Positions 1,708 to 51,595 of a stretch of DNA of 64,000 nucleotides are shown piece by piece. The DNA is taken from assembly GCA_020632555.1 (NCBI GenBank), contig JACKFI010000002.1, forward strand, positions 130,621 to 194,620, in the 5' to 3' direction. Each line of letters begins with the position of its first letter. Within the stretch, counting starts at the first letter, position 1. Under the pieces are notes generated by a model, which saw nothing but the letters and a program-made list of their open reading frames with translations, had not been told where the DNA came from and searched no databases. The stretch comes from Candidatus Omnitrophota bacterium (lineage in GTDB: Bacteria; Omnitrophota; Gorgyraeia; Zapsychrales; JANLHA01). The position numbers were made by a program, and so were the translations under genes.

Positions 1708-3426
1708 TTATCCTTCATCAAAAAAACTCTCTTCACTCGCAACATGCCGCAATCCACGGTTAATAATATCTATATCGAATTGCTCTGGATCAAAATCTCC
1801 GCCAAGCCACTCTCTCTTCTCTGCATATTCAGGATGGTCGGGATCGCGGATAATCTCTAGAAATCTTTCATACCCCCCAGGACCGCCGCAATCATCAGGC
1901 GGGCAACTGCGCTCACCGGCAAGACACAAAGGATATCTGGTGCCCTTCTGCGGGGCTAATACTTTTTCCAAAAAGACAGCATGTTCCCACCCATCACCAA
2001 AATCATATTCAAAAACAAACTGCCGAAGCTCGTCGACAGAGAAATCACCCAAACGAAACTCACCCTCATCCTCAAAATCATCAAGCTCTGAATAATCTTC
2101 ACAAGGAATACTATACTTTTTCTTACCTATACAGAATTGATGCAAATGACAATTATCCCACTCCATCACAAGAATCAGTGTCGCCGCCAAACGCTTTAGA
2201 GTGATGCCGCTTTTAACCTGAAACCTGCGCCAAATTGCAGGTTGGATATTATTTAAGACGACCTTAAACTCTAACACTTTACTCTGCCCCAATAACGACG
2301 GATTCTTTTTACTGACAACTTTTGATTTCTTCACTTTACGTTTGGATTTGCTAGAAGAATCCTTGAAAGGACCGCCTTCTTTTTTAAATGCCTTGTTAAG
2401 CTCGTCACGCGCATAATCAAGCATGGGAAGTTCTTGAACCACTTGGGTTGTAATACCAAAAACGGCCAATGGCGCAAAAACAGATGCCAAATGCGCCTGC
2501 CGAATACAGATCATTTTTGGAAAAACCCGATTCTTTCTGACAGCCTCACATATTTGATTTAGAAAGTCCGCACCATGATCCACAGCATCAGCCAAATTCA
2601 TATGAAGAATAAACCCAGACTCTTGATCTGCCATCATATAACAAAAAGGAAACCGTGGACGTTCGTCTGAGTTTCTAATAGGCATCTCCCCCATAAAACA
2701 GTCCGCCTCCCAAACCATTTCAGTTTTCTGAGCTTTGCTAAATACCTGTTCAAGTAAAACTTCATCAAATTTGGGAATAATTTGAATAACACGTTTTAAT
2801 GGTTGAGGTGAAATAAATGCCTCTTGCCAAATTGTCCCTTGAGTTGTTTGAACAGGCGTGCGGGCTAAAAAAGTATAATAATCGCCCGGGCCCAGAATAT
2901 CCGGATTATCTTTCGCGCGACGGGCAACATCCACAACCTGCTCAAGACAAACACTCATAAACACCGCATCATTTTCTTGAAATAACCACGGAAAAAATCC
3001 AGGCTCAAATCTACGAAACTGCGGCCAACCCTGTAAGGTCGGATATGACACGCCTGCCGCTTTACAAAAAGCTAAATCTTCTGGATTAAGCATGTTTTTA
3101 TTTTCTAGAAATACCGTCAAGGAGTCTTTCTGATATAAAAAATCTATATCTGGCTCTTCAATATCATTTAAAACGGCTTCATGATAAGCAACAAGCCCCC
3201 GATCACCCAACATTGCGTCAAGCCCGCAACAAATACCCTCAGCACCCATCACAATACAATAAGCAATTTGTTCTGACTGCGGATCACGTACAGCAACAAC
3301 CTCCCGATCTCCCATCCAACGCCACGGTTCCAATGCCACAAACGCATCCAGCGCGGCCAAGAGCCGCCGGGCAGTATTCTCAGACGGAAACAAGAACTTC
3401 TTATTGAGCTGATTTTGTCGAGCCAT
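1708..3426 (-). CDS. pRiA4b ORF-3-like (PF07929-type) domain protein with a large uncharacterised N-terminal region
   Basis: 572 aa with an ATG start and an AGAGGTG Shine-Dalgarno. The C-terminal ~180 aa carries 'LEFKVVLNNIQPAIWRRFQV', 'HLHQF', 'YDFGDGWEH' and 'CPPDDCGGPGGYERFLE', the signature of the plasmid pRiA4b ORF-3 / IS1096 TnpR-passenger family. Confidence 0.7.
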   Translation of the reverse strand: MARQNQLNKKFLFPSENTARRLLAALDAFVALEPWRWMGDREVVAVRDPQSEQIAYCIVMGAEGICCGLDAMLGDRGLVAYHEAVLNDIEEPDIDFLYQKDSLTVFLENKNMLNPEDLAFCKAAGVSYPTLQGWPQFRRFEPGFFPWLFQENDAVFMSVCLEQVVDVARRAKDNPDILGPGDYYTFLARTPVQTTQGTIWQEAFISPQPLKRVIQIIPKFDEVLLEQVFSKAQKTEMVWEADCFMGEMPIRNSDERPRFPFCYMMADQESGFILHMNLADAVDHGADFLNQICEAVRKNRVFPKMICIRQAHLASVFAPLAVFGITTQVVQELPMLDYARDELNKAFKKEGGPFKDSSSKSKRKVKKSKVVSKKNPSLLGQSKVLEFKVVLNNIQPAIWRRFQVKSGITLKRLAATLILVMEWDNCHLHQFCIGKKKYSIPCEDYSELDDFEDEGEFRLGDFSVDELRQFVFEYDFGDGWEHAVFLEKVLAPQKGTRYPLCLAGERSCPPDDCGGPGGYERFLEIIRDPDHPEYAEKREWLGGDFDPEQFDIDIINRGLRHVASEESFFDEG

Positions 3427-3549
3427 AATTCATTACACCTCTAATTTATACATTTATATTTTCACCGCTTCAACAACACCTCTAATAAAAACATTATTTT
3501 AATATAATTAGAATAATTCAAAAAATCTTTTTTCCAGAATCCCAACCTG

Positions 3550-3645
3550 TTGACAATTTAACCCGAATTTTGCATTTCTCTTTTTTATGCGCAACATATC
3601 GTCACGTACTATAGTGTAATGCAAAATTTGGGGTTAATTGTCAAT
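3550..3645. repeat. 96-nt imperfect palindrome: 27-nt arms, 42-nt spacer (repeat copy A)
   Basis: Left arm is ttgacaatttaacccgaattttgcatt (3550-3576). Right arm is aatgcaaaatttggggttaattgtcaa (3619-3645). About 24/27 positions are complementary, with a bulge. Left arm plus spacer (3556-3610) matches 27137-27192. Confidence 0.85.
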
Positions 3646-3653
3646 AATTTTCA

Positions 3654-3693
3654 CAAAAAAACCCGGCTGATTCGCAAATACGAACCAGCCGGG
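3654..3693 (-). terminator. rho-independent terminator downstream of the CxxC gene
   Basis: Minus-sense CCCGGCTG-(16-nt loop)-CAGCCGGG followed by TTTTTTT. Confidence 0.75.
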
Positions 3694-3707
3694 ACAATTT
3701 TACTTCT

Positions 3708-3864
3708 TTATCGGCTATCGCCCTTACGCTTGGAAAAACAATCCTTACAATAGACGGGACGGTCTTCGCGCGGCAAAAGGAACGTCGCATTGTTGTTTAC
3801 AATCTGCGCAAACAGCCTTATGCATTTCGCGCGGTCCACGGTCATATCCACCTTGAAAAGCCAT
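3708..3864 (-). pseudogene. CxxC-x17-CxxC zinc-ribbon small protein, reading frame broken by a 2-nt deficit
   Basis: AGGAGA Shine-Dalgarno 7 nt before the ATG at 3864. Frame 0 reads MAFQGGYDRGPREMHKAVCADCKQQCDVPFAARRPSRLL* (stop at 3745). The +1 frame continues PREDRPVYCKDCFSKRKGDSR* (stop at 3708). Joined with one extra residue, this gives exactly CxxC-x17-CxxC. The break sits in the GC-repeat tract at ~3766-3775. Confidence 0.6.
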
Positions 3865-3917
3865 GTGATTCTCCTGTTGTGGTTTTAGCGTTTCTTATGA
3901 AAACGCCCTGAAATATT

Positions 3918-4313
3918 TTATCGTTCTCTGCTTTTAGAAAAAAACGGTTTCTTTTTACCAGCAAACCCTCGACTGCCGCGGCTGTCGCGATCCCTATAAG
4001 ATCTCTCCCCGGAAGGCGCACGATGACCACTTTCATAACTTCTTTCGCGAGGCGGGCCACTGCGTTCTGCGCGGCTATCCGGCCGGTTACCATGACGTGC
4101 GGCGCCATAAGAGGACGGCCCTGAACGAAAAGACGGCTTAGAAAAAAGTCCTCTCCTTATTAAAAGACGGTTTTTCCTTGGATTGATTAACCAAAATATC
4201 AACTTTGCGTTCCAAAAGGTCAATTGTTCCTGCAGCTTTTTTAATAAAAAAATCACATCCGCCGGTGATCCCGATTCAACAACCTCATCATTCTGCTGAT
4301 CTTGCTGACTCAT
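3918..4313 (-). CDS. hypothetical Arg/Ser/Gly-rich low-complexity protein
   Basis: ATG at 4313 with an AAAGGA Shine-Dalgarno; the track's GTG start at 4391 is less likely. The C-terminal half is RS/RD-rich ('RERSYESG', 'GERSYRDRDSRGSRGF'). The segment 4138-4226 reads more protein-like in another frame, so the frame is uncertain. Confidence 0.4.
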   Translation of the reverse strand: MSQQDQQNDEVVESGSPADVIFLLKKLQEQLTFWNAKLIFWLINPRKNRLLIRRGLFSKPSFRSGPSSYGAARHGNRPDSRAERSGPPRERSYESGHRAPSGERSYRDRDSRGSRGFAGKKKPFFSKSRER

Positions 4314-4577
4314 GTCTATGTCCTTTCGTTGATAAATCTTTTTGCCCAATAATATTTTTAGAAAACCAACTGCCTGCCTGACGCAAATCACACAGGGCTT
4401 TGACAGCCTTTAGTAAATTTTAACGATGGAGAAGATCTGGATTGATTGTCGTGATGAGTTCTCGGATATGAAAAATTACAAAATAATATTAAAAACCTGC
4501 TCCTTTAGAAACTTCAAAGAAAAGCATCATACAGGATACCCTTAAAAAAGCAATAAGCATTTTTTGTGGCTGTCCAG

Positions 4578-4624
4578 CCAAATTAAAAATGTCCTAGTTT
4601 AACCAAATTAAAAATGTCCTAATT
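4578..4624. repeat. tandem direct repeat, 2 copies, period 25
   Basis: ccaaattaaaaatgtcctagtt (4578-4599) and ccaaattaaaaatgtcctaatt (4603-4624). The pair abuts the 3' end of the ISNCY-like transposase remnant. Confidence 0.85.
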
Positions 4625-5850
4625 TTAGAAGTTTCGTAAGCTCCCTTTGAGCTTAAACCCGTTGCGCCAATATGACCCCCTAGGCGGCACATATCGCGGC
4701 AATCTTTTGACCTTTTTGACAACGGCAACCTTAACCTCTGGCTGCGGCCGTTGGTCTATCGGTTTAAACGCTAATGGCTGCTTCCCATACTTGATCGCCA
4801 GCCGGCCATTTAAATACTCAAAAACTACCACCTGCCGAGCCCGCGTTTTATCTGTCACCTGATACAACCGGCGTTCATGCAACACGGTTCGGTCATTGCG
4901 TAACACATGCCCTGTCTGTACGGACAATATCTCGTCGAGTTTAACGCTCTTATCAATCGGCCGATGCATATCACCCAACAACCGCGCTACTACCTAAAGC
5001 GCTTATTAAACTTCGGCAAATACGTTTTTAAGAATGCGTTGGCTTCTTCACAACTCTTAATCCCGGCCAACCGCATCTCTTTAACCAACCGGTCTTGCAA
5101 TGTCTTAAAAACACGCTCGATGCGTCCCTTGGCCTGCGGACTATGCGCATGAATAACTTCGATCCCAAGTTGCTTACATGCTCGCTCAAACTGCGTCAGC
5201 TCTTCTTTGTCCTCAAAATCCCAATTCGCATAGCGATATCTTTTTTTAGCATTGCTTTTTATACGTCGCATGCTTATCAAGATACAATTGCACCGGCAAT
5301 CCATACTTCTGGGCGTAAGACTTTAACCCGCCATCGCCGGTTTGGTCCCCTCATACTCAAGAACAACCCATCAAAAATTACTCGTTGCGTCGTCGATAAA
5401 TCCCATCAAGACCAACTTCGGTCCTCGGTCTTCCAGCCAAAGATGATGACTCCCGTCCATCTGCACCATTTGCCCAAACCGTTCCCTTACGGGCTCGCCA
5501 ACTGCGCTCTTTAACTTTTCGACGCTTGCCCTCATGCCATAATCCTTCTGCTATCAGCCACAGCCGCAATGTCTCATCACTAATCTTAATATGATCTAAT
5601 TCCCAAAGTTTTTTCGCTGGCTAAAAAGTGGACCAAATCCCTTGTATCGCTCACGGTACAAACCCAAAATCCTTTCACGTACCGCTTTGGCAACACTACG
5701 CCGTCCTTTGCATCCTCGCGATCGGTGGATGACTCCGCGTTCTCCTTCCTTGCGTACCCGTCGGACAATCCGCCTGATCTGTCGATCACTTAATTCTATG
5801 GGAATGATACCATTGATCCTTACCCCTGATCCCAGCGGAGGCGATGAAAA
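4625..5850 (-). mobile_element. decayed ISNCY-family IS: DDE transposase pseudogene split by several frameshifts and stops, N-terminus truncated
   Basis: Fragments in three frames. The HTH region reads 'LSDRQIRRIVRRVRKEGERGVIH...YKGFGPLFSQRKL' (5590-5800). Next comes 'ISDETLRLWLIAEGLW...KRRKVK' followed by 'MVQMDGSHHLWLEDRGPKLVLMGFIDDATS'. The rve core is 'LTQFERACKQLGIEVIHAHSPQAKGRIERVFKTLQDRLVKEMRLAGI' (4990-5304). The C-terminus is 'GDMHRPID...RTVLHERRLYQV' (4625-4981). Confidence 0.7.
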
Positions 5851-6179
5851 TTTTATGTATTACGGATGAAGCATTTAAAAATATTAAAGAGGCTTACCAG
5901 GCCTTTTGCCAGGGCCTTAGAGGTCGATTACCCAAAAGATCGTTGAACCCTAGCCCCATTAGGGGGGAGAGTTTATTAGTACAAAAACAACCCGTCCTTA
6001 AGAAAAAACATTTTTCGGATTATGAACCCAGCAAAGCGATTTACCTCAACGAATGTGATTATCGCCGCTGGTGCCGCGTTAAGCGAATGGTTTAACCAAT
6101 ATGGATCTGATTCTGAATATTAAAAATCTATGAATTAAATAAAAATGGACACATAATAGCTCCTAAAATCCTTGGCGGG

Positions 6180-7300
6180 ATGAAAGGAGTGAAAAAACTT
6201 ATGTGTCCGTACAAATATTATCATGTTATGAGACAAAGCAAAGATAAAAAAATCTTACGTTACCAGATGGTTCTAAAGGCTCTAGCGCTGGGCGTCAAGC
6301 CCACAGCCAGACTTTTTAATACCAGCGCGCCTGTGGTCCGTAAATGGTCCAAGCGTTTTAAGACTGACGGTTATCTTGGATTAAACGACCGCTCCCACAA
6401 ACCCCACTATTCTCCCGGTGCCACACCCGAGCCTATAAAAAGTTTATCATCGATCTAAAGGGCAAATATAAGCGTTTGGGCGCAGAACACATTCGAAACT
6501 TAGAAGGTTTAACTTATGCCCCTAAAACCATGCGCAAAATCTGGAAAGAGGCGGGTATCCCGTCGAGAAAGAGACCCAAGAAACATGTCACAAAGAACAA
6601 CCTGCGCGCCGTAAAAATGCTCTTTAAATTATTCGAGCAATCCATGGAGGACACCAAAGACCTCATGGATATCCCCGAATACTATCTCCAAGCTAAAATG
6701 CTTAATCTGCCAAAAGTGCAATATACTTTTTCGGGAAGTCTCCTGCGGAATTCTTTTTACCGGCTTTGCCAATAATCTTTCGCTAACACATTCACAATTA
6801 TTTGCCGTCTATATCAACCACTTCCTCAAGAAATTTAGCGCTCTGCCGAAATCGGCTATGCGACAAACTGATAATGGCAGCGAATTCATCGGCGCTTGGA
6901 ATGCTAAAAAATCTTCTGCCTACACCAAGACCATCGAATCTGTGCCCGGCCAATGGCACAACACAATTTTCCCGGTGCACATCGCATGCAATCTGACGTC
7001 GAGACGATTCACAATCTCATGGAGATGGAATTCTTTGAGATTGAACAATTCAAGAATCAATAGGGCGGACTTCTTTAACAAAGCCACGTCCTATCAATTA
7101 TTCTTCAACCTGCATCGCACAAACTCTTACAAAGAACACAAAACACCTTGGCAATTAGCCCAAGAAAAGAAACCAGATTTGGACAAACGCTTACTGATGG
7201 TTCCTCCAGTCGATCTCGACAAACTACTCAACTGGAAATTATCACTTACTCATTCGAAGGGGGGTAACGATCACTTGACCGTTCCCTCATTTTTTGTGGC
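6180..7300 (+). mobile_element. decayed IS481-like IS: integrase-core transposase pseudogene, at least 3 frame breaks
   Basis: N-terminal HTH is 'ARLFNTSAPVVRKWSKRFKTDGYLGLNDRSHKPHYSPGATP' (6180-6458). The middle fragment spans 6476-6775. The DDE core is 'RQTDNGSEFIGAW' with the tail 'SYKEHKTPWQLAQE...PPVDLD' (6858-~7290). Frames differ between the pieces. This is the only plus-strand coding remnant in the window. Confidence 0.65.
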
Positions 7301-7329
7301 GGTTTTTTGCCCCAATCGCAACAGCACGC

Positions 7330-9726: not shown

Positions 9727-9727
9727 T

Positions 9728-10861: not shown

Positions 10862-10862
10862 A

Positions 10863-19764: not shown

Positions 19765-19783
19765 CAAAGACTGGCACCACTGA

Positions 19784-20536
19784 CTAACCCATAACCAACA
19801 AAATCGCCATTAGGCCAATGCCCAAAACAATACACGTAAATTGCCCCAGCGCCGCGCGAACACTGACTTCATGCCCATGATGCAATTCCGGAATAAGATC
19901 CGATCCGGCAATATACAAAAATCCACCCGCGGTAATCGGCAAAAGATAAATACTAAAGAGAGCCGCCTGCGAACCGACCAGAAAAACAATAAATGCCCCC
20001 AAAAAAGACGTCAACGCCGAGAAAAAATTTAACAACAAGGCTCGTCGAACCGGAACCCCCCCATGAACAAGAATGCCAAAATGCCCAATTTCCTGAGGAA
20101 TTTCATGCAGAATCACGGCAACGGTGGTTGTGATGCCAATCGGCACACTGGCCAAAAAGCTAGCCGCGATCAACATTCCGTCAATCATATTATGAAACCC
20201 ATCGCCCACAATATTAAGCGCCACCACCGGATGCACATGATCACTGGATGCCGGAATGTGGCAATGCTGCCAGCGTAAAAACTTTTCCAAAATAAAAAAG
20301 ATCAGGATCCCGCCTAAAATACAAAAAGAAGCAATCGGCGCCGGAGAAATCACCGCAAATGACTCCGGAATCAAATGAATCAGCGCGTCCCCAAAAAGCC
20401 CGCCGACGGCAAAGCTCACCAAATACAATAACATCTTTCGTAGAACTTCTTTATTCAGCGCCAAAGTAAAAACACCGATTAATGAAATCAAACTCACAAT
20501 CAAAACACTGACAAAAATATAAATCCAAATATTCAT
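19784..20536 (-). CDS. ZIP-family divalent metal transporter (ZupT-like)
   Basis: 250 aa with 8 TM segments. It carries the 'HNMIDG' and 'LHEIPQEIGHFGILV' signatures. Confidence 0.85.
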   Translation of the reverse strand: MNIWIYIFVSVLIVSLISLIGVFTLALNKEVLRKMLLYLVSFAVGGLFGDALIHLIPESFAVISPAPIASFCILGGILIFFILEKFLRWQHCHIPASSDHVHPVVALNIVGDGFHNMIDGMLIAASFLASVPIGITTTVAVILHEIPQEIGHFGILVHGGVPVRRALLLNFFSALTSFLGAFIVFLVGSQAALFSIYLLPITAGGFLYIAGSDLIPELHHGHEVSVRAALGQFTCIVLGIGLMAILLVMG

Positions 20537-20561: not shown

Positions 20562-23500
20562 TTAATGAGCTTGATTCGTATTGACCCAACCGCCGCCAAT
20601 CGCTTTAATCAACTGCACCGCGGCGATCAAAGTTTCGGACTGAATTTTAATCGCGTCCCGCTCTGAATCCAAACGTGAACGCTCGGCGTCAATCACCTCC
20701 AAGAAACTCACCAACCCTTCCTTATACCGTTGTATCGAAAGATCCGCCGCTTGTTGGGCAGAATCACGCACAGCACTTTGCGCAGCATATTCTTCTTTGC
20801 GCAACCGAATATTTACCAAAGCATTTTCCACTTCGCTCAAAGCCGTCAAAACACGCTTTTTATATTGCGCCTGTGCTTTTTTATATTCCGCTTGCTGAAC
20901 TTTCACTTTGGCATTTAACCGTCCGCCATTAAATAATGGCAGGGTTATTGACGGATTAATAGACCACACCCGGCTTTCCCAATTGAGCAAATCACCCGAC
21001 GAAATGCTCGAGTATCCGGCGCTGCCCATCAATGTCACCGCTGGAAAAAAAGCCGCTTGTGCCACACCTATCCGATCGCTGGCTGCTGACAATAAACGTT
21101 CAGCCTCCACAATATCCGGCCGCTCCATCAAAACACTCGATGGCAACTTCACCGGAATTTCTGGCGTGATATTTTGCAAAAATAGCGGCGCCAAGCTAAA
21201 ATCACTGGCATTTTGCCCGCACAAAACCGCTAAGACATTAACCAAATTTTCCCGCCGCCGACGGCCATCCACCAAATCAGCTTGGGCTTGCGACAATTGC
21301 GTTTGCGCTTGAAAGAAAGTTAATTCGCTGTTCATCCCTTCCTGAAAACGCAATTTGAGCATATCCACCGCGCGCTGCCGCAATTCCACTGCTTTTTCTA
21401 AAGCAATAATCTCCGCGTCCACCGCGCCAATTTGAAAATACGTCCGTGCCACATCCGCTGTCAATGTCAAATACACCGTTCCATACGCGGCCACTTGCGC
21501 CTGCGCATCCGCCCGACCTGCCGCAAATGCCTTGCGCACCTTGCCCCAAATATCAATTTCATAACTCACATCCAACGGCAAGTGATAAGAATTACTGATC
21601 GCCGCCGGGAAATGGCTGCTGGCCGCCGAACGCGTCCGCCCAAACGACGGCTGCGCCTCAATCTCTGGCCAAAGAGCAGCCCCATCAACACGCGCTAAAG
21701 CCCGCGCTCGGTCCACATTGGCCATCGCGATCACCAAATCCTGATTGTTCGCTAAAGCTTTTTTTTGTAAATCATTTAATGTGCCATCACCAAACAATTC
21801 CCACCACGTCGATGTCACAGCCAAACCTGTATTCGTCGCTTGCGTATTTTTCCATCTGAGCTTTTGATCCATTGGCGGCTTTTGATAATGCGGTCCGACG
21901 CTGCAACCATTTAAAGTCAGAAAGAAAAACAAAACAATAATACTTACGGTTGTCGAATTTTTTAAACTCAAATCCTTCTGTTCCTTTTGCGCCAACTTGC
22001 TAAAAAACACATATACAACCGGAATAACAAATAAAGTCAAAAACGTGCTGGTCAACATCCCAAAAACCGCGGCAATACCCAGCGGCCGGCGCGCCTCGCC
22101 GCTGGCACCAAAACCAATAGCAATGGGCAGAATACCGACGATGGTAGCGGTCGCTGTCATCAAAATCGGGCGCAGCCGAATCAAGCCCGCCGCCAAAATC
22201 GCTTCGGTGGCCGTCTTGCCCTCAGCCATTTTTTGATTGGCAAACTCCACTAAAAGAATACCGTTCTTAGTCACCAAACCAAACAAGAGAATCATACCAA
22301 TCTGACTGTACAAATTAATATTCATGCCCGCCACAACACCCACGACTCCTGTTTTGCTGATCAAATTCATCAACCACAACCCCCCCAAAGCCCCAAACGT
22401 CGCCAATGGCAAAGTGAACATCACCGTCAAAGGATGAACCAAGCTTTCAAACTGCGCCGCCAAAACCATATAAATAATCAAAATCGATAAAATCATGACA
22501 AAATAAATACCCTTATTCGACTCATTGAGATCCCGCGCTTCTCCTGCCCATTCATAACGAAATCCGTCGGGTAAATCTGTCTTTAAAAGCGCCGTCGCTT
22601 GATCAACCGCAGTGCCCAAAGGAATACCCATTGGCGTCGCTTCAATGGTCGCGCTGCGCCAGCGATTATAATGATTAATCGCGCTGGGTCCAGCCCCGGT
22701 CTGCGTGTTAATCACATTATTCAAACCAATCAATTCGCCGCGATTATTACGAACATAAATCTTTTCCAAATCCGACGGCAACAAACGCGACGCGCGTTCC
22801 AATTGAACAATGACCTCATACTCTTTTCCCTTGATATTGACCTTCGAAAGGTCCAATCCGCCAAACAAAATTTGCATCGTCCGCGAAATATCTTCAACAT
22901 TAACACCAACCGCCGCGGCCCGATTGCGATCCACATCGATGCGCAGTTCTGGTTTATTCATTTCAAAGGTCGTGCGAACATTCAACAAAAAACCGGTTTG
23001 TCGTAATTTATTGGTCAAATCTTGAGCGTAATCATTGAGCGCGTTCAAATCTTGGCTTTGAATAACCAATTGAAACGGCTGGCTAAACCCACGGCCAATC
23101 GCTTTAGGAATAATCGGAATCACAAAAGCGCCCTCAACATTATTAAAGAACTGCGCTCCCAAGCCCGTCGGGCCGCCAATAATATCGCGCAAATGCCGCT
23201 TGCGTTTATCTTTCAAACGAATAAACGCCAAGCCTTGCGATGTTTGTCCCGGACTGCCGCGCGACAAAGCCACCGCGGAAAAATAACCTTCGACCTCCGG
23301 CACCTTCGAAATAATTCCTTCCATTTTTTTGATCATCCGATCCGTGTATTCGCTGGTCGAACCTTCCGGAGCCAAAGCAAAACACAACAATCGCCCTTTA
23401 TCTTCGTCAGGCAGAAATTCTTTTTCCAATTGCGTAAAAAAGAACACCGTCAAGCCAATAGCCACCACAACCACTGAAGCCATCAGCTTAGGATGCGACA

Positions 23501-25067
23501 GTGCCCAGCGCAAACCACGGCCATAACGCTCATTGATCTTGGTCAAAAACCGTTCAAACATGCCCAAAAAACTTCCCTTGGGACTATGCCCAATCGGTTT
23601 TAAAATCCGTGAAGACAACATTGGGCTTAACGTCAAAGCAACAAATGAGGAAATGATCACCGACATGCACAAAGCGACAGAGAATTCCACAAACAACCGG
23701 CCCGTGACACTGGTTTGAAAAGCCATCGGCAAAAACACGGCGATCAAGGCAATCGTCGTCGCGATAATGACAAAACCAATTTCCTGCATGCCCTTAAACG
23801 CGGCCGCCCGCGGATCCATGCCGTCCTCAATATGCCGATAAATATTTTCCAAAACAATAATAGAGTCGTCCACAACCAAACCAATCGCCAAAACAAAAGC
23901 CAACATGCTGACAATATTGATAGAATAGCCAAATAACTGCAACACGCCAAAGGTCGCGACAATAGACACCGGAATGGTCAAAGCTGGAATCAGCGTCGAC
24001 CGGCCATCATGCAAAAAAAGATAAATCGAAAGCACAACCAAACCAAAAGCAAGAAAAAGCGTTTCCCAAACTTCTTTGATCGCGCGATCCACATAAATGG
24101 ATTCATCATAGGGAAAAGCCGTTTCAATCCCTTTGGGCAAAGTGGGGATAATTTTAGCCACTTCGGCCTTAACCCGACGGGTAACGTCAATGGTATTGGC
24201 TTTAGACTGACGCACAATGCCAATGCCCAAAGCCGGTTTGCCATTAAAACGGGCAATGGCTTTTTCATCCTCAACACCGACTGTGGCATGCCCGATATCC
24301 GACAAACGGATGAAGGTCGCCCCGTCTTGTTTGATAACCAAATTATTATATTCTGCGGGCGTTTTCATTTCCCCGCGGGTTTCAATGGATAAAACCCGGC
24401 TCCAACTTTCCACCAAGCCGCTGGGCAATTCCACATTTTGCGTCTTAAGCGCCCGTTCGACATCCAAAACCGTCACGCCGCGCGCGGCCATTTTTTGCGC
24501 GTCTAACCACAACCGAATCGCGAAACGTTTTTCTCCGCCCAAAATCACCGAGCTGACACCCGTGATGGTTTGCAAACGATCTTTAAAAGTTGTTTCCGCA
24601 ATCGATGTTAGCTCCAGCGTCGAGTAACGATCACTGAACAAAGCCACCCACAACACCGGCTGAGCATTGGAATCCTGCTTGGCCACAATCGGTTCTTTGA
24701 TATCATCCGGCAAACGGCCCCGCACCCGAGCCACGCGGTCACGCACATCCTGCGCGGCCAAATCAATATCACGCGAAAGATCAAATTCAACCGTTACCGA
24801 GCTGACTTGTTGACGGGATTCGCTGGTGAGATTTTTAATACCCTCGACCGACGTGATGGATTCTTCCAAGATTTCAGTAACCTGCGTCTCAACCACACTG
24901 GCGCTGGCACCGGGATAAACAGTGGTGATATTGATAATCGGCGGGTCAATGTCGGGAAGTTCACGCACCGGCAGACGGGAAATACCGATGATGCCAAACA
25001 AAATGAGCCCTAAGCTCATCATTGTGGCCAAAACCGGCCGTTTAATACTGATTTCGGAAAGTTTCAT
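20562..25067 (-). CDS. RND efflux permease (AcrB/HAE1-like, codons 1-1032) in frame with a NodT-family outer-membrane-factor lipoprotein (codons 1033-1501)
   Basis: One uninterrupted 1501-codon ORF. The AcrB-like N-terminus is 'MKLSEISIKRPVLATMMSLGLILFG'. From TTG codon 1033 (21971) a lipoprotein signal begins (SLKNSTTVSIIVLFFFLTLNGC, lipobox LNGC), followed by an OMF body ('GPHYQKP', 'WWELFGD'). See the finding on the T6 run at 22002-22007. Confidence 0.85.
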   Translation of the reverse strand: MKLSEISIKRPVLATMMSLGLILFGIIGISRLPVRELPDIDPPIINITTVYPGASASVVETQVTEILEESITSVEGIKNLTSESRQQVSSVTVEFDLSRDIDLAAQDVRDRVARVRGRLPDDIKEPIVAKQDSNAQPVLWVALFSDRYSTLELTSIAETTFKDRLQTITGVSSVILGGEKRFAIRLWLDAQKMAARGVTVLDVERALKTQNVELPSGLVESWSRVLSIETRGEMKTPAEYNNLVIKQDGATFIRLSDIGHATVGVEDEKAIARFNGKPALGIGIVRQSKANTIDVTRRVKAEVAKIIPTLPKGIETAFPYDESIYVDRAIKEVWETLFLAFGLVVLSIYLFLHDGRSTLIPALTIPVSIVATFGVLQLFGYSINIVSMLAFVLAIGLVVDDSIIVLENIYRHIEDGMDPRAAAFKGMQEIGFVIIATTIALIAVFLPMAFQTSVTGRLFVEFSVALCMSVIISSFVALTLSPMLSSRILKPIGHSPKGSFLGMFERFLTKINERYGRGLRWALSHPKLMASVVVVAIGLTVFFFTQLEKEFLPDEDKGRLLCFALAPEGSTSEYTDRMIKKMEGIISKVPEVEGYFSAVALSRGSPGQTSQGLAFIRLKDKRKRHLRDIIGGPTGLGAQFFNNVEGAFVIPIIPKAIGRGFSQPFQLVIQSQDLNALNDYAQDLTNKLRQTGFLLNVRTTFEMNKPELRIDVDRNRAAAVGVNVEDISRTMQILFGGLDLSKVNIKGKEYEVIVQLERASRLLPSDLEKIYVRNNRGELIGLNNVINTQTGAGPSAINHYNRWRSATIEATPMGIPLGTAVDQATALLKTDLPDGFRYEWAGEARDLNESNKGIYFVMILSILIIYMVLAAQFESLVHPLTVMFTLPLATFGALGGLWLMNLISKTGVVGVVAGMNINLYSQIGMILLFGLVTKNGILLVEFANQKMAEGKTATEAILAAGLIRLRPILMTATATIVGILPIAIGFGASGEARRPLGIAAVFGMLTSTFLTLFVIPVVYVFFSKLAQKEQKDLSLKNSTTVSIIVLFFFLTLNGCSVGPHYQKPPMDQKLRWKNTQATNTGLAVTSTWWELFGDGTLNDLQKKALANNQDLVIAMANVDRARALARVDGAALWPEIEAQPSFGRTRSAASSHFPAAISNSYHLPLDVSYEIDIWGKVRKAFAAGRADAQAQVAAYGTVYLTLTADVARTYFQIGAVDAEIIALEKAVELRQRAVDMLKLRFQEGMNSELTFFQAQTQLSQAQADLVDGRRRRENLVNVLAVLCGQNASDFSLAPLFLQNITPEIPVKLPSSVLMERPDIVEAERLLSAASDRIGVAQAAFFPAVTLMGSAGYSSISSGDLLNWESRVWSINPSITLPLFNGGRLNAKVKVQQAEYKKAQAQYKKRVLTALSEVENALVNIRLRKEEYAAQSAVRDSAQQAADLSIQRYKEGLVSFLEVIDAERSRLDSERDAIKIQSETLIAAVQLIKAIGGGWVNTNQAH

Positions 25068-25089: not shown

Positions 25090-26187
25090 CTAAGGTTTTG
25101 ATTCTTCGGACGGCTTATCACTCTTATCTGTTTTGATTTTGACCAAAGACCCCGGGCCAATTTTTTGATATCCTTCGACAATCACATTCTCACCGGCAGT
25201 TAAACCTTCAAGAATCTCAACTTGACCGACCATACGAATACCGACTTTCACTTTTTTCATTTGCGCTTTATTCTCACTGTCCACCACAAAAACAAAAACA
25301 TCATCACTTTTCATCATCAGCGCCGTTTCCGGAACCACCAAAGCCTGTTGACGAATGCTCACAATCAAATTCAAATTCGCGAACATTCCGCGAACCAATC
25401 GGCCGTCGACATTGGGCAGTTTTGCTTTGATCAAAGCGGTACGAGTCAATTCATCAACCTGCGAATCAATAAAATAAACTTCCCCTTTAAAGGTTTCATC
25501 TGGATACGCCGCGACCGTAACTTCAATACCTTGGCCCTCTTTGAGTTGCCCCAAAAAACGTTCAGGAATACGAAACTCCGCTTTCATCGGATCTTGCTTG
25601 ATCAAAGTCGTTAACAAAGTCCCTTGATTTACAAATTGGCCAATGCTGACCTTGCGGTCACCGGTAATGCCGGCAAAACTCGCGGTAATCTGCGTTTCTT
25701 TCAACTGCGCATTAATCAAATCTATCTGCGCTTTGCACGCCTCTAAATCAGAGGTCGCCTGATCAAACTCCTGTTGAGAAATGGCATTGGCTTTTATGAG
25801 GGTCGACAGCCGCGCGAAAGTTGTTTGCGCCAAACCCAAACTCGCTTGAGCCTGCGCCAAAGATGCTTTGAGTTTGCCCGCGTCAATCACAAACAACATT
25901 TGACCTTGCTCAACGGCTTGTCCTTCGGAAAAACCAATTTCTTCAATCACGCCGGCAATTTGATTCTTGATTTCAATCGATTCATCGGCCTGCAAATTTC
26001 CCACCAAGGAAATTTTTTCCTCGATCTTCTGAATCTTAACGGGTACAGCCACCACATTCATCGCAAAACCGCCCATCGCCCCGCCGGGATGACCACCCTT
26101 TTTATCCGAACCGCAACCCGATACAACAAATGTGGAAATCAAAACGGCACAACCGCACAAAACAAAAAGACTATTTTTAAAGCGCAT
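25090..26187 (-). CDS. RND efflux periplasmic adaptor (MFP/HlyD_D23 family) lipoprotein
   Basis: ATG at 26187 with an AAGGA Shine-Dalgarno 6 nt upstream; the track's TTG at 26220 is rejected. The signal ends in a 'VVSGC' lipobox. It has coiled-coil and beta-barrel regions typical of AcrA-like adaptors. Confidence 0.85.
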   Translation of the reverse strand: MRFKNSLFVLCGCAVLISTFVVSGCGSDKKGGHPGGAMGGFAMNVVAVPVKIQKIEEKISLVGNLQADESIEIKNQIAGVIEEIGFSEGQAVEQGQMLFVIDAGKLKASLAQAQASLGLAQTTFARLSTLIKANAISQQEFDQATSDLEACKAQIDLINAQLKETQITASFAGITGDRKVSIGQFVNQGTLLTTLIKQDPMKAEFRIPERFLGQLKEGQGIEVTVAAYPDETFKGEVYFIDSQVDELTRTALIKAKLPNVDGRLVRGMFANLNLIVSIRQQALVVPETALMMKSDDVFVFVVDSENKAQMKKVKVGIRMVGQVEILEGLTAGENVIVEGYQKIGPGSLVKIKTDKSDKPSEESKP

Positions 26188-26337
26188 ACGCATTCCTTTT
26201 TTTATCGCCGCCAAAGCCAAAATACGGCAATAATCTTAACACATTTTTCAGAAAAGTTGACGTTGAAATTCCCTATCACCGTCCCGTAGTATTACTACGC
26301 TCAATCTCCATATTTACTTCAAAAACAAAGCTTCAAC

Positions 26338-27003: not shown

Positions 27004-27050
27004 TGTGCATATCTCCTGTAGAAATTTGAAAAATTCAAAACAGACCAAAC

Positions 27051-34272: not shown

Positions 34273-34297
34273 GAATAAAACCTTTCGTAATAATGTT

Positions 34298-35374
34298 TTA
34301 TGTTAATGAATTCTGAACCGCATTAAAAACGTCGCCAACTTCAACATTCTTGACACAACTGATATGTTCACACGCCGCCCGACGAAAATTTCGATAACAC
34401 GGTCGGCAAGCTATCGAACTTGTGACAACACGATGTTGTCCGGGCACACCCGCATAAGGGCCATAAACCTTTTCATCAACCGGGCCGAAAACAGAAACTG
34501 TTTTGATACCTGCCGCCACCGCCATATGCAAAGGCCCGCCGTCATTGACCAATGCCAAAAAACTTTTCTTGAGAATCGCCAGCGTCTGCAATAAACTCGT
34601 TTTTCCACAAGCGTTAAACAGCGGGCATTTTACTAAACTTTGAATCTCTTTGCAAAGAGATTCCTCTGCGTGATTGCCCAGCAAAATGATATTCACATTA
34701 AAATCAGCCATTATTTTTGTAATCAGCTGCGCATATTTTTCAGCCGGCCAACGTTTAAATTTCGCGTCCGGCCCCCAGCTTTCACCGCCCCCCGGGAAAA
34801 CAGCAATCCATCGGGCTTGCAAAGAATTAGCATCCTGCAAAAATTTCTCCGCCCATAAACAACCCTCCGGGGCAACAGCAATATCCATCGATTGCGGACT
34901 AATATGAAAATTCACGGCGCTCAAAAGCCCCTGATAATATTGCGCCACATGCCGACCTTCATAACCAGAAAGCAAAACCTTTTTTGTTAAGAAAATACTG
35001 CGATTTTTATAATTAAGACCAACCCGTTGTTTAATTCCGGCCAGCCAACAATAAAATCCGGCATACCATGTCATCGAAAGATCAAAAACCGCGTCATATT
35101 GTCCTTGCTGAATCTGGTTCTTAGTTCTTTTGATTAACTGCAAAAACTCAAACCGGGAACGGTCAGAAACAACTTTAAACTCACTGCGGTCATAAACAAT
35201 CACCTGATTAATCTGCGGCAAACTCTCCAAAAGCGGCGCAGTGCGTCGATTGGAAATATACCCAATATAGGCATCAGGAACATTGGCTTTGATGTTCTTC
35301 ATCAACGGAACTGTAAATAAAACATCGCCTATACCAAAAGTATTAATAATCAAAAACCGTTGAGCTCTGCGCAT
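34298..35374 (-). CDS. glycosyltransferase family 9 (heptosyltransferase-like)
   Basis: 358 aa. It carries 'RFLIINTFGIGDVLFTVPL' and 'VNDGGPLHMAVAAG'. Confidence 0.8.
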   Translation of the reverse strand: MRRAQRFLIINTFGIGDVLFTVPLMKNIKANVPDAYIGYISNRRTAPLLESLPQINQVIVYDRSEFKVVSDRSRFEFLQLIKRTKNQIQQGQYDAVFDLSMTWYAGFYCWLAGIKQRVGLNYKNRSIFLTKKVLLSGYEGRHVAQYYQGLLSAVNFHISPQSMDIAVAPEGCLWAEKFLQDANSLQARWIAVFPGGGESWGPDAKFKRWPAEKYAQLITKIMADFNVNIILLGNHAEESLCKEIQSLVKCPLFNACGKTSLLQTLAILKKSFLALVNDGGPLHMAVAAGIKTVSVFGPVDEKVYGPYAGVPGQHRVVTSSIACRPCYRNFRRAACEHISCVKNVEVGDVFNAVQNSLT

Positions 35375-35406
35375 TACAATTTCCCATGGATCTTATGTTA
35401 ATAAAC

Positions 35407-36252: not shown

Positions 36253-36264
36253 AGCCAGCCGCCT

Positions 36265-37371: not shown

Positions 37372-37375
37372 GACG

Positions 37376-39269: not shown

Positions 39270-39298
39270 AAAACCCTCGTCAACATATTGCTATTTAA

Positions 39299-42733: not shown

Positions 42734-42782
42734 AAAAGAATTTCCTTTCTTAACATGCCTGCTTTAATCAAAATGTTTTTTG

Positions 42783-42890
42783 TTTTGCCACAAACCCTTC
42801 GGCTCAATGAACGGTCCCTGGTCGATGTCCCGCCTAAAGGCGGGAGAAATTCAGGGCTGCGTTCAATTCGCCGTTGGGCTTGCGGCAAAA
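42783..42890. repeat. 108-nt GC-rich imperfect palindrome / structured intergenic element
   Basis: The 31-nt arms (42783-42813 and 42860-42890) are complementary at 24/31. They enclose a CCCTG...CAGGG helix and a perfect hairpin CCCGCC-taaa-GGCGGG (42829-42844). The element lies between two co-oriented sugar genes. Confidence 0.8.
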
Positions 42891-42901
42891 CAAACACATC
42901 C

Positions 42902-44451: not shown

Positions 44452-44466
44452 TTAAAGAATTCATAT

Positions 44467-49486: not shown

Positions 49487-51595
49487 CTAACGATTTGCTC
49501 CCGCTTTGCTGCGATTAAATCCTGTTCCAAAATTAATTGCTAAATCAGGAAATTCTTTCAATGTAAAGATAACCCATACCGCGTCACCATCATTATCTTT
49601 GTGATTAAAACTGATTCGTCCCTCCCACTCGTGCAAATCACGCACAATCGCATATTGCTGTTCTTTATTAATCCCGCGATCAACATCCCAGCGCTGATAC
49701 ACTTCCCCATACCATTTTTGATTAATACGATAATTCAATTGGCTGGTGATCTGATCATCAACCGCGCGGTCGTAGCGTTTACCAAAACCCATGGACCATC
49801 GGCTCTGTTGGGGATCGTGAAAATAAACATCAAAATTTGCCACACTCAAATGCTCTTCTATAGTGTCATAGGTCGATTCCGCATACAACGTCATCCAGCG
49901 GTTTGGAATAAAATCCGTTTTCGTCGTTACATTATTAAATCCACCTTTATGCGAGTCCTCTTTTAAATAAAAATCTGATGAAACAAGAAAACGCAACAAA
50001 TCCTCGCTTTTATTAGAACGCTTGGTCTGCAATTTGTTTTCTAAACCAAAGGTTATGCCGTGACCACGCACCACACTATCAATCCCATCAAACTGAACCA
50101 GTTTTGAGGACTCCAAACTTGGATCATGCGTATAAAAATACGCCACCGAAGGGGTCACCACATGTCGCAAACGATGAATATCCAAATTCAACCAATTGGT
50201 TTGCGCATCATACACACGAAAGAACCTGGTGCTGACATCCGCGCCGGTTTTAAAAACACCCCGCAAAGTGTTATTATCAGTTTTCTCCAATGTTTTAGAA
50301 TAAAAAGTTTCTTGTCCTCCGACAAAAGGCCGCAATTCAATAAATTTGACTTTAAACGGATAAGAAATTTCATTATCAGCATCAAAACGCATTGTTTCAT
50401 AACGATGCGCACTGGGACTGGCCTCTAACTTGGCCAAATTGGAAAATGTCGTATTGCTTTTCCAATAAAATCCACTGTCCAAGATCTTGTTTCCCGGTAA
50501 AAGATAATTGATCTCCGGCAATCGATTGACCGCCGCATTGAAGCGATTGACCCGAACATCACTGCGTAAACTCAAAGTCCCGGCCGTCTCAAATCCTTTG
50601 CTTAATAAGAAATACGTCGCAGGATTAACATCTTCCTCATATTCACGAGGAAAAAAATCTTTAACAAACTCCGCGTCACTTAATTTATAATACTGCCAAA
50701 CAGCTTTGGTATGATCATCAATATCCCATTTATGCCGCCACTCCCCTTTATACCGTTCCCGTTCAATAACCGCTTTATTATTACTCGAATTAAAATCAAA
50801 AAAGAATTTCTCATCGCTCAAACGTTCTTGTGTGTAATAGGCCTTCATAAAGCCATTACCAAAACGCTCATTTTGATAATTCAAATCCGCACCTTCACCA
50901 AAACCTCTTTTGCTGCGATAGTCCACATGGACCACCGTATTAACGCGATCATTCCAATAATGGCGCCATTGAGACAAAGCAAAACTCCCCCAACCTTTGT
51001 AATAACCCGGAGTGATGGTAAACATCGGTTTTTGATGTCGTAAATCCTGAGTATAACGAGGCAAATAAAAAATGGGCACTTTGCCCAACACCACGGTCAT
51101 ATTGCGGGCTACAGCTTTATCTCCTTGATAAATATCCACGCGGGGAGCTCTCAACTTAAAATGCGGATGATCCAAATCGCAGGTGGTGATATATCCATCT
51201 TTTAAAACAATATGCTTATCATCTTCTTTAGATATTTCCTTGCCAGAACCATAAAAAGGCTTTGACGTGATCTTTGCGTCAATAAATTCCCCTTTCATTG
51301 TTGCAAAGTTGTAAATCATTTTGTCGCCAGTCAAACGAGCACCATCCCGCTCCAAAACAACATGTCCTTGCGCTATCCCCACATTTTGTGTCCGATCAAA
51401 CTCCATGCGGTCAGAAGACAAAGTCACCCCCAAACGCTTAACCACAACATGCCCGATAGCGCTCACCTTATTGCCAGTTACCGAATATTGAACTTCATCC
51501 CCATTGATCTCGACCGGCACAATGTTTTCTTGAGCAAAACTCACCGCCGCGCAGCTGATCATTAAAACACCCAATAGGATTTGAAAATACTTCAT
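49487..51595 (-). CDS. lptD: LPS-assembly outer-membrane protein LptD (OstA family)
   Basis: 702 aa with a signal peptide. The N-terminal OstA-like domain ('EINGDEVQY...VVKRLGVTLSSDRMEFD') is followed by a large beta-barrel-type C-terminal part. Confidence 0.75.
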   Translation of the reverse strand: MKYFQILLGVLMISCAAVSFAQENIVPVEINGDEVQYSVTGNKVSAIGHVVVKRLGVTLSSDRMEFDRTQNVGIAQGHVVLERDGARLTGDKMIYNFATMKGEFIDAKITSKPFYGSGKEISKEDDKHIVLKDGYITTCDLDHPHFKLRAPRVDIYQGDKAVARNMTVVLGKVPIFYLPRYTQDLRHQKPMFTITPGYYKGWGSFALSQWRHYWNDRVNTVVHVDYRSKRGFGEGADLNYQNERFGNGFMKAYYTQERLSDEKFFFDFNSSNNKAVIERERYKGEWRHKWDIDDHTKAVWQYYKLSDAEFVKDFFPREYEEDVNPATYFLLSKGFETAGTLSLRSDVRVNRFNAAVNRLPEINYLLPGNKILDSGFYWKSNTTFSNLAKLEASPSAHRYETMRFDADNEISYPFKVKFIELRPFVGGQETFYSKTLEKTDNNTLRGVFKTGADVSTRFFRVYDAQTNWLNLDIHRLRHVVTPSVAYFYTHDPSLESSKLVQFDGIDSVVRGHGITFGLENKLQTKRSNKSEDLLRFLVSSDFYLKEDSHKGGFNNVTTKTDFIPNRWMTLYAESTYDTIEEHLSVANFDVYFHDPQQSRWSMGFGKRYDRAVDDQITSQLNYRINQKWYGEVYQRWDVDRGINKEQQYAIVRDLHEWEGRISFNHKDNDGDAVWVIFTLKEFPDLAINFGTGFNRSKAGANR

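Follow-up and report, generated by a model that had tools for sequence, protein, structure and literature searches.

In all characterised tripartite RND efflux pumps, the closest being MexAB-OprM, MtrCDE and CusCBA with their lipoprotein OMFs (and, more distantly, AcrAB-TolC), the RND permease and the outer membrane channel (OMF) are separate proteins, and the OMF bears its signal at its own N-terminus. The locus described here has the same three full-length components, with the periplasmic adaptor (MFP) gene likewise upstream, but its permease and channel are encoded as a single polypeptide with an internal lipoprotein signal. It lies in a window of 64,000 nucleotides, the whole stretch of DNA that was analysed, from a contig of a Candidatus Omnitrophota bacterium.

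The arrangement has two partial parallels. In FbcH of Bradyrhizobium japonicum, studied by Thony-Meyer and colleagues, cytochrome b and cytochrome c1 are reportedly made 1:1 as one precursor with an internal signal that is cut by signal peptidase. As in the window, a polytopic inner-membrane protein is thus said to be fused, via an internal signal, to a partner from the same complex that is exposed to the periplasm; however, the FbcH site is said to be of type I and its partner to stay in the inner membrane, whereas the window protein has a lipobox, and the proteins are unrelated. SecDF of Thermus thermophilus is a gene fusion within the RND superfamily that places two partners of one machine in one chain, according to a comprehensive 2021 review; it is left uncleaved and both of its halves are inner-membrane RND-type domains, whereas the second half of the window protein belongs in another membrane.

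Searches of the open-access literature found no account of a natural RND-OMF fusion or of an internal lipobox, although absence there is not proof, and the part searched of the 2021 review mentions no such fusion. The terms "internal lipobox" and "internal lipoprotein signal" had zero occurrences in the open-access literature searched, and no precedent was found there for cleavage by LspA so deep in a polytopic protein, where the lipobox lies some 1050 residues from the start. The reading favoured here, with a probability of roughly three in four, is that the gene is a genuine, conserved fusion and that its product is a polyprotein precursor from which the OMF would be cut free at the lipobox.

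A permease and a channel in one reading frame

The fusion gene occupies 20562..25067 on the minus strand (stop codon 20562..20564) and is listed as one ORF of 1501 codons with an ATG start, in which RND permease, internal lipoprotein signal and OMF follow one another without a change of frame. As the first-pass annotation of this DNA had noticed, no stop codon separates the AcrB-type permease from a complete NodT/OprM-type OMF, and both Pfam families are present in full: ACR_tran (PF00873) matches residues 4-1022 (989.5 bits, cutoff 28; 2-1020 of the 1021 profile positions), and OEP matches twice, reaching residue 1491. An open frame of 4.5 kb across two full-length protein families is no chance feature. 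The same 1501 residues are deposited at NCBI as MCB9757104.1, the source being a MAG of Candidatus Omnitrophota. NCBI names of fused members refer to just one half of the protein, as "outer membrane subunit" in some and as "RND permease" in others.

Alignments to profiles and to PDB sequences indicate that both halves are complete. The permease half (residues 1-1032 including the cytoplasmic C-terminal tail; 21972..25067, minus strand) aligns end to end with the structures of MexB, AcrB and MtrD, query residue 1034 pairing with AcrB residue 1041. Its translation contains AIGLVVDDSIIVLEN and FGLVTKNGILLVEFAN, judged by eye to match the proton-relay motifs of TM4 and TM10 (D407, D408 and K940 in AcrB). 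Despite full-length alignments, the NCBIfam cutoffs for the multidrug efflux and HAE1 subfamilies were missed (NF033617, 1020.7 against 1250 bits; TIGR00915, 795.9 against 940.35). This half is safely an RND permease of the AcrB type, multidrug transport being a possible function.

The mature OMF (C1055-H1501, 447 aa; 20565..21905, minus strand) is a channel of the NodT/OprM type. The profile TIGR01845 (outer_NodT) matches residues 1047-1493 over its positions 2-460 of 460, with 399.1 bits (cutoff 210.05), and phmmer aligns positions 1-441 of the OMF part to 1-451 of the OprM chain 1wp1 (E 6e-55). Cys1055 pairs with residue 1 of mature OprM, OprN, MtrE and CusC, with no extra linker, and the OMF part also aligns with OprJ from residue 1. 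In the established structures of OprM and CusC the acylated residue 1 of the mature protein is located at the outer membrane, a long way from the inner one. The signal belonging to this OMF is internal, at residues 1033-1054 of the 1501-residue chain, and not N-terminal as is usual for NodT-type OMFs.

The separate adaptor gene lies directly upstream of the fusion gene (25090..26220, minus strand; TIGR01730 RND_mfp, 266.2 bits, cutoff 94.9; Pfam HlyD_D23), and the order MFP-then-fusion recurs in L001, the relative at 97% identity, and in L083-L085. Immediately downstream lies a gene for a ZIP-family metal transporter (19784..20536, minus strand; PF02535, E 4e-44), also adjacent in L001 and given here as context only. 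Because genes for an LptD-like protein and a heptosyltransferase are located within the window, an LPS outer membrane is evidently encoded nearby. Scanning the window for Rfam families and tRNAs gave no hits.

Fused and split relatives

Fused relatives, taken as chains of more than 1200 aa with PF00873 and PF02321 together, were sought in NCBI, JGI, ENA and Logan assemblies with the full-length protein as query, which recovered 83 fused cluster representatives at 47-97% identity, mostly from Candidatus Omnitrophota. A query of 220 aa spanning the junction did not recover the family; nearly all of its matches were short RND C-terminal fragments and only one (P0009) crossed the junction. Independent assemblies at about 93-97% identity retain the junction (P0121; P0391, on a 1.1-Mb contig; P0393), and a fragment at 57% identity also crosses it. 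An exact look-up of contigs for the window protein gave no record, and near-identical cluster members were compared in place of identical assemblies. At least 20 further fused families exist at 26-47% identity, one of them named Acidobacteriota; an internal lipobox was found in 17 of the 19 more distant fused representatives that were read, including the Acidobacteriota-named cluster with its 8 full-length members. Comparing orthologous operons for the position of the stop codon and the length of the T run, as had been proposed in the first-pass annotation, has thus revealed a stop-less junction conserved many times over, which is the result that the annotation had named as refuting the error explanation. 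It should be noted that some singleton fused metagenome sequences could themselves be indel artefacts.

A scan of contigs with the junction alignment gave, among the matches listed, mostly unfused RNDs (Verrucomicrobiota, Acidobacteriota and others), a listing that is unusable for taxonomic counts and in which several MAG labels (Planctomycetales, Actinomycetes) look unreliable. Seven loci among the matches listed matched the whole query, namely five fused genes (L003-L006 and L009) and two split pairs (L007 and L016). The split operons resemble the window in gene order, in having an OMF with a lipobox and in their RND, which is of the same family (RND parts 63-67% identical), but have a stop codon and a frame change between the genes: in L007 (RND at 2962..6165) the ATG of the OMF overlaps the RND stop as AATGCATAA in another frame, and L016 is organised likewise. 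Their OMF carries an ordinary N-terminal lipobox signal (MHKIIALLILSLSLPGC), whereas the window form has neither stop nor frame change, and therefore the RND tail replaces the Met and the n-region of the signal peptide.

Because the start of the unfused OMF overlaps the RND stop in another frame, small indels evidently suffice, in the course of evolution, to turn split into fused pumps and back. In a neighbour-joining tree fused and split pumps interleave, which suggests that the two forms were exchanged repeatedly in evolution, the number of events being uncertain because the internal branches are short. The evolutionary intuition of the first-pass annotation was therefore sound in so far as unfused relatives do overlap RND stop and OMF start, but the fusion in the window is no recent lesion.

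The junction and its possible readings

The in-frame tail at the junction reads FFSKLAQKEQKD, and the segment LSLKNSTTVSIIVLFFFLTLNGC ends at Cys1055 (codon 21905..21903). Three elements can be distinguished, all on the minus strand: a basic tail, SKLAQKEQKDLSLK (residues 1023-1036; 21960..22001), which is at once the RND C-terminal tail and the putative n-region, with lysines K1024, K1028, K1031 and K1036; a hydrophobic h-region, NSTTVSIIVLFFFLT (residues 1037-1051; 21915..21959), predicted to form a 13th membrane segment with N-in/C-out orientation; and a lipobox, L-N-G-C (residues 1052-1055; 21903..21914), with a predicted LspA site between G1054 and C1055.

In all 75 Omnitrophota-type fused members the tail is basic, a short hydrophobic segment follows it and the lipobox Cys is kept. 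Gly stands at -1 in 72 of the 73 scored, the net charge of the tail is between +1 and +9 in all 74 scored, and the uncharged run before the Cys, at 8-23 residues (median 16) across the family, has the length of a signal peptide. The distance from Tyr1019 to the Cys is 28-42 residues and the residues between vary freely; in the h-region the letters drift while the hydrophobic character is preserved. Asp at +2 after the Cys was found in none of the family members checked. The Asn at -2 in the window places its lipobox outside both the strict [LVI][ASTVI][GAS]C rule and a looser PROSITE-type pattern; the strict rule fits 32 of 73 relatives and the looser pattern 61 of 73, and xNGC also occurs in 3 of 92 free-standing OMF homologues. 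A second fused group (P0232 and relatives) has a type-I-like (AxA) internal signal in place of the lipobox and would be a closer analogue of FbcH than the lipobox form.

The DNA of the junction is as previously described, including the T6 run, an in-frame TTG and the hypothetical product of a one-T deletion. The T6 run (plus-strand A6; 22002..22007, minus strand) forms the codons TTT TTT of Phe1021-Phe1022 and, judged from its sequence and from the relatives, is no frameshift site. The TTG (21971..21969, within the basic tail) encodes L1033 and is preceded by AAGGAA 9-10 nt and by AAGGAT 1 nt upstream. Deletion of one T would give an RND ending in VVYVFLASWRKRNRRI, with a TGA at 21970..21968 overlapping the TTG. 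Among the relatives the run is T6 in L001, T8 in L002 (86% identity) and TTC TTT in L003 (about 83%), and the frame is unchanged in all. Codons 1017-1036 differ from those of three relatives mainly at third positions, with synonymous to non-synonymous ratios of 5:1, 9:1 and 7:2; frame 0 is under purifying selection through the junction.

Several other readings of this junction have to be weighed. One accepts a genuine fusion but has the OMF of this genome made also, or mainly, by initiation at the TTG, and takes the full-length chain for a by-product that the cell tolerates. Such a start would yield a normal lipoprotein signal peptide of 22 residues (LSLK...LNGC), and the AAGGAA motif precedes it in the window and in L001; the lipoprotein signal with its in-frame TTG and upstream AAGGA, which the first-pass annotation took for the start of the OMF, does exist in this genome. 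The TTG with its AAGGA is lost, however, already at 86% identity: L002 and L003 have TTA with AAAGAG or AAAGAT, and neither contains an ATG, GTG or TTG before the h-region, nor is the alignment column of L1033 restricted to L, M or V across the family. Because these relatives lack both the AAGGA motifs and any start codon ahead of the hydrophobic region, internal initiation cannot, on these sequences, be the conserved route to the OMF. Moreover, because no stop codon ends the RND part, each ribosome completing the RND enters the OMF, and the fused precursor would be made regardless of the TTG. Initiation at this codon would at best be an additional route and no alternative, and as the principal explanation it is unlikely.

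It is still less probable that the fusion is left uncleaved, with a permanent 13th helix and an OMF tethered to the RND across the periplasm. A covalent tether would guarantee assembly of the pump, and cleavage is itself deduced from sequence features. Yet an anchor helix needs no invariant Gly-Cys, while here these residues are kept and the sequence of the helix drifts; the type-I group has AxA-type sites instead; and the position of Cys1055 at residue 1 of mature OprM and CusC leaves no linker. The hydrophobic core of about 12-16 residues is also short for a stable transmembrane helix, and the interleaving of split and fused forms in the tree likewise speaks against a permanent tether.

Programmed recoding, in which ribosomal or transcriptional slippage on the T run would give a separate RND (a -1 shift leading to TAG, ending in VYVFF) beside the fusion and would tune the RND:OMF ratio, is very improbable. 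A run of T6-T8 followed by AGY and a -1 frame TAG are present in the window and in L001-L004, but the run is broken in L003, the TAG is missing in L005, L006 and L009, Phe-Phe-Ser is simply conserved protein sequence, and the stoichiometry requires no surplus RND. Programmed frameshifting was accordingly rejected as a conserved signal.

Least probable of all, and in practice disproved by the comparison with relatives, is the explanation preferred in the first-pass annotation, that a sequencing artefact or very recent lesion changed one base of the T6 run and joined two coupled genes, the RND ending in FLASWRKRNRRI and the OMF starting at the TTG: homopolymers are error-prone, the one-T deletion does produce a basic tail whose TGA overlaps the TTG, and unfused relatives do show overlapping stop and start, but the stop-less junction is kept in all 83 representatives, down to 47% identity, the T run varies with the frame intact, the conserved Ser1023 and SKLA/SDLA tail are found only in frame 0, and the +1-frame stop arises automatically from Leu-Ser codons TTR AGT. 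The tail created by the deletion is indeed basic, but FLASWRKRNRRI, which had been supposed typical of RND C-termini, does not resemble the RND tails of unfused relatives (FFSDLA..., LFSNGIK...); the in-frame tail, FFSKLA..., does.

Predicted processing and its meaning

The comparative data thus favour the option that the first-pass annotation had rated less parsimonious, namely that the fusion is genuine and carries a lipoprotein signal inside the chain. The fusion is real and conserved, its signal features and lipobox Cys are conserved, and this Cys corresponds to residue 1 of mature OMFs; from these features we infer that the OMF part is exported through Sec, lipidated, cut by LspA and sorted, and that the RND retains the 13th helix. 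One ribosome would produce the 1501-residue precursor, of which the 12-helix RND permease would enter the inner membrane, leaving its C-terminus on the cytoplasmic side. The basic tail and the hydrophobic segment (residues 1023-1036 and 1037-1051) would then act as an internal signal/anchor, inserting N-in/C-out as the 13th membrane segment and starting Sec-dependent export of the 447-residue OMF part. At its periplasmic end the lipobox would be diacylglyceryl-modified by Lgt and cut by LspA at LNG|C1055, so that an internal lipobox cut most likely frees the channel after export. The released OprM-like lipoprotein would be sorted to the LPS outer membrane and trimerise, the RND would retain the signal as an extra C-terminal helix, and both products would assemble with the separately encoded adaptor as a normal tripartite pump. 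The fusion would set RND and OMF synthesis at 1:1, fitting a trimer:trimer stoichiometry, while the adaptor, which is required in another ratio, would remain a separate gene.

In its widest form the proposal, which we regard as reasonably likely, is that LspA would serve as a polyprotein-processing enzyme, cutting at a lipidated lipobox some 1050 residues down the chain of a 12-helix transporter, so that a single translation event would deliver, 1:1 and at the same site, an inner-membrane pump whose 13th helix is the retained signal and a lipoprotein channel for the outer membrane; that this arrangement was gained and lost repeatedly (in Omnitrophota, Acidobacteriota and others); and that a version dependent on signal peptidase I arose in parallel.

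A gene of this kind is tempting to miscall, as pipelines or curators might split it or flag a frameshift, and the present result corrects such calls. The apparent back-and-forth between split and fused pumps through small changes at the junction makes a clean case for studying how genes of an operon fuse and separate where their stop and start codons overlap. If cleavage occurs as proposed, the substrate range of Lgt and LspA would extend to internal sites in polytopic proteins, and a rare example of a bacterial membrane polyprotein would be added. The fusion raises the question of how a retained 13th helix affects the RND pump, and it offers a natural system for the coupling of RND and OMF synthesis, stoichiometry and assembly.

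The junction between the RND and OMF parts

The first-pass annotation had described the permease and the OMF as one 1501-codon reading frame without an intervening stop codon, and this is borne out: the ORF at 20562..25067 on the minus strand, which encodes NCBI MCB9757104.1 of a Candidatus Omnitrophota MAG, matches both Pfam families, ACR_tran on residues 4-1022 (989.5 bits, nearly the whole 1021-position profile) and OEP twice, reaching residue 1491. The T6 run (plus-strand A6, 22002-22007) provides the codons TTT TTT for Phe1021-Phe1022 within the junction GTG TTT TTT AGC AAG TTG GCG CAA AAG GAA CAG AAG GAT TTG. The in-frame TTG pointed out earlier is present (Leu1033, 21971..21969), with AAGGAA 9-10 nt and AAGGAT 1 nt upstream, and the codon of Cys1055 (21905..21903), like the other junction elements on the minus strand, specifies the final residue of the stretch LSLKNSTTVSIIVLFFFLTLNGC.

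Deletion of one T reproduces the alternative end proposed for the RND part, ...VVYVFLASWRKRNRRI*, with a TGA (21970..21968) that overlaps the TTG. This alternative tail had been considered typical of RND C-termini; however, the Phe-Ser-x-Leu/Ile pattern that is general among RND tails is found in the frame as it stands (frame 0), where the tail past the last RND helix reads VVYVFFSKLAQKEQKD, and it is absent from the tail created by the deletion (FLASW...). The same pattern occurs in ...VVYTFFSDLAARL... of Verrucomicrobiota-type fragments and in VVYVLFSNGIK... of a split relative.

Among the loci of close relatives, the length of the T-run varies while the frame is fixed: L001 (97% identity to the window) keeps T6 and has the synonymous changes AGT, TTA and CAA, L002 (86%) reads GTT TTT TTT (T8) ... 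AAA GAG CAG AAA GAT TTA, and L003 (~83%) reads GTT TTC TTT, with the run broken, ... GAT TTA. For codons 1017-1036, comparison of the window with close relatives gave synonymous to non-synonymous ratios of 5:1, 9:1 and 7:2, with 5/6, 8/11 and 9/11 of the changes in third positions. Judged from these substitutions, purifying selection on frame 0 runs right through the proposed frameshift site. A full-length protein search retrieved 83 cluster representatives that exceed 1200 aa and combine the two Pfam families in a single chain, at 97% down to 47% identity, from NCBI, JGI, ENA and Logan assemblies; the named ones are Candidatus Omnitrophica/Omnitrophota. Members of the 90% cluster of the window protein from other assemblies share this junction, one of them on a 1.1-Mb contig. 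The evidence thus supports a genuine RND-OMF fusion in the window. It should be noted that the contigs of three close relatives (L003, L007 and L009) are titled 'uncultured Planctomycetales' or 'Actinomycetes bacterium' and are probably mis-binned or mislabelled.

Internal initiation at the TTG could at best supplement OMF production in the window genome. The window and L001 have the TTG with AAGGAA upstream, but L002 and L003 have TTA and AAAGAG/AAAGAT instead and contain no ATG, GTG or TTG upstream of the h-region, and the alignment column of Leu1033 is not L/M/V across the fused family. Moreover, a fused precursor would be made regardless of internal initiation, because no stop codon precedes the OMF. 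Recoding by a -1 slip on the T-run, ending the RND part at a TAG, could draw on the TAG that follows immediately in the window and in L001-L004, but the T-run is interrupted in L003 and the TAG is missing from three further loci (L005, L006 and L009), so that no selected recoding signal is seen. The fusion of two genes by a homopolymer indel or recent mutation, preferred in the first-pass annotation, is refuted by the conservation of the stop-less junction in relatives; of its second option, the genuine fusion stands, and the lipobox cleavage attached to it is plausible in view of the conserved signal features.

The internal signal and its proposed processing

Starting at Cys1055, the C-terminal 447 residues align with mature OprM, OprN, OprJ, MtrE and CusC, first residue to first residue (OprM 1wp1: E 6e-55, query 1-441 on chain residues 1-451), and they match TIGR01845 for NodT-type OMF lipoproteins with 399.1 bits (cutoff 210.05; profile positions 2-460 of 460). 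By alignment, the OMF part starts exactly where mature OMF lipoproteins start, with no linker added. The alignment of the RND part with AcrB extends to query residue 1034, which corresponds to AcrB residue 1041 of 1049, so that the C-terminal tail of the RND part would double as the n-region of the signal. The RND part exceeds the Pfam threshold but stays below the cutoffs of the NCBIfam 'multidrug' subfamilies (1020.7 versus 1250; 795.9 versus 940.35), and therefore no substrate is claimed.

The junction was surveyed in an alignment of 84 fused sequences, 75 of which are of the Omnitrophota type, with counts taken over the members scored. The lipobox Cys is present in 75/75 Omnitrophota-type proteins, preceded by Gly at -1 in 72/73, by S, T, N or A at -2 in 64/73, and at -3 by Leu in 42/73 (F, A, T, S, V or C in the others). 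Asn at -2, as in the window protein, is atypical for a lipobox and is shared with 11/73 fused relatives and 3/92 free-standing OMF homologues; Asp at +2 was found in no Omnitrophota-type member. In these proteins an uncharged run of 8-23 residues (median 16) precedes the Cys, the tail before it carries a net charge of +1 to +9, and the Cys lies 28-42 residues past Tyr1019. The h-region varies freely in sequence, with 9 non-synonymous changes in 20 codons (residues 1037-1056) against L002 and L003. Nine fused proteins of lower identity (47-51%, e.g. P0232) are without the Cys and have a type-I-like signal with AxA-type ends, such as ...LSLPVRA|ED and ...LTGPAQA|EE; their operons, in the order MarR-MFP-fusion, are seen on 12 JGI contigs, the longest measuring 4.4 Mb (L083-L085; L083 5001-9581). 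This group would represent a parallel solution using signal peptidase I. What is conserved in both fused groups, as far as sequence can tell, are the features by which the machinery recognizes a cleavable signal, and no particular helix.

Beyond the synthesis of the fused precursor, we infer the following steps from the conserved sequence features and from what is generally known about Sec, Lgt and Lsp. The twelve RND helices would enter the inner membrane, and the basic tail and h-region would form a 13th segment (N-in/C-out), leading to export of the OMF part. Cys1055 would be modified by Lgt, LspA would cut between G1054 and C1055, and the OMF lipoprotein would be sorted to the outer membrane, while the 13th helix would stay with the RND part and the products would assemble with the adaptor. 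The fusion would thereby set RND:OMF synthesis at 1:1 (trimer:trimer) and free the OMF beside its partner. The first Cys of solved OMF lipoproteins is acylated and located at the outer membrane; an uncleaved fusion would hold the equivalent Cys1055 at the inner membrane, which argues strongly for cleavage.

Split relatives, spread and genomic setting

In split relatives the OMF gene directly follows the RND gene in a different frame; an example is L007, where the RND stop and the OMF ATG overlap (AATGCATAA) and the OMF sequence opens with MHKIIALLILSLSLPGC. A small indel at such an overlap would yield exactly the fused architecture. In a neighbour-joining tree of RND parts, the window protein falls into a purely fused clade of 53 representatives (57-98% RND-part identity), and outside that clade fused and split pumps interleave, with free P0204 beside fused P0178 and free P0197 beside fused P0176, P0173 and P0171. 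The internal branches are short, so this interleaving is only suggestive of repeated switching between the fused and split states. Such switching would make sense if both forms gave, once processed, products of equal function.

A search with query residues 702-1501 against 1.84 billion 50%-identity representatives revealed, among the best 150 matches, at least 20 full-length proteins (1372-1557 aa; 26-47% identity) and about 8 fragments that match both halves. Of the 19 full-length sequences inspected, 17 carry an internal [GAS]-Cys lipobox preceded by a hydrophobic segment, and 2 carry type-I-like signals. Some singletons could be artefacts. Independent assemblies contribute 8 full-length members to the P0243 cluster, with the NCBI names Acidobacteriota/Bryobacteraceae and, for one member, the JGI name 'HAE1 family protein/NodT family ... 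outer membrane'; judged from this cluster, the architecture recurs beyond Omnitrophota.

The fusion gene lies between an adaptor gene immediately upstream (25090..26220; TIGR01730, 266.2 bits, cutoff 94.9) and a ZIP transporter gene immediately downstream, and L001 shares both neighbours. An LPS outer membrane would be available for the OMF, as indicated by a family-9 heptosyltransferase (34298..35374) and a long cell-envelope sugar-nucleotide/glycosyltransferase cluster (33154-51595) that closes with an LptD-like protein (49487..51595) and contains two DegT aminotransferases, several epimerases/dehydratases, two UDP-glucose/GDP-mannose dehydrogenases, GT2, GT4 and GT9 glycosyltransferases and a B12-radical SAM enzyme.

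A Fic/DOC protein whose C-terminus is an HTH_17 domain (27233-28261) is encoded a short way upstream of the efflux operon, beside a 236-aa ORF (26338-27048) without Pfam or NCBIfam match. A 731-aa ORF at 17572-19767 has a weak spermine-synthase-like match only; in L007 an ORF of equal length starting with TTG (8778-10973) is found downstream of the split pair, and a link with the pump family is no more than a possibility. Three c-di-GMP signalling proteins (HAMP-GGDEF-EAL, GGDEF and GAF-GGDEF) are encoded in the 64 kb (7330-9726, 52662-55066). The region 4600-7500 contains no intact gene and has broken transposase remnants on both strands, namely an rve_3 integrase-core fragment (4990..5304, minus) and an IS481-type HTH/leucine-zipper fragment (6180..6458, plus), which look like decayed insertion sequences. 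Over the whole 64 kb, almost all ORFs of at least 140 aa lie on the minus strand and the GC skew of the plus strand stays strongly negative (-0.10 to -0.26), which points to one long co-oriented replichore stretch with unusually strong strand bias.

Relation to known systems

The window system has the same parts and working as tripartite RND pumps of the MexAB-OprM type, but in it RND and OMF form a single chain that carries an internal signal. The nearest conceptual precedent known is the cytochrome b/c1 precursor (FbcH) of B. japonicum, which is reportedly cleaved at an internal type-I signal; no literature precedent was found for an internal lipobox. RND-OMF fusions are not mentioned in the searched text of reviews of tripartite pumps and outer-membrane pore families, targeted literature searches found no description of them, and the database names of the fused proteins are half-correct. 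The fusion architecture is thus widespread and apparently undescribed; its component parts are thoroughly familiar, and its processing step is unusual and testable.
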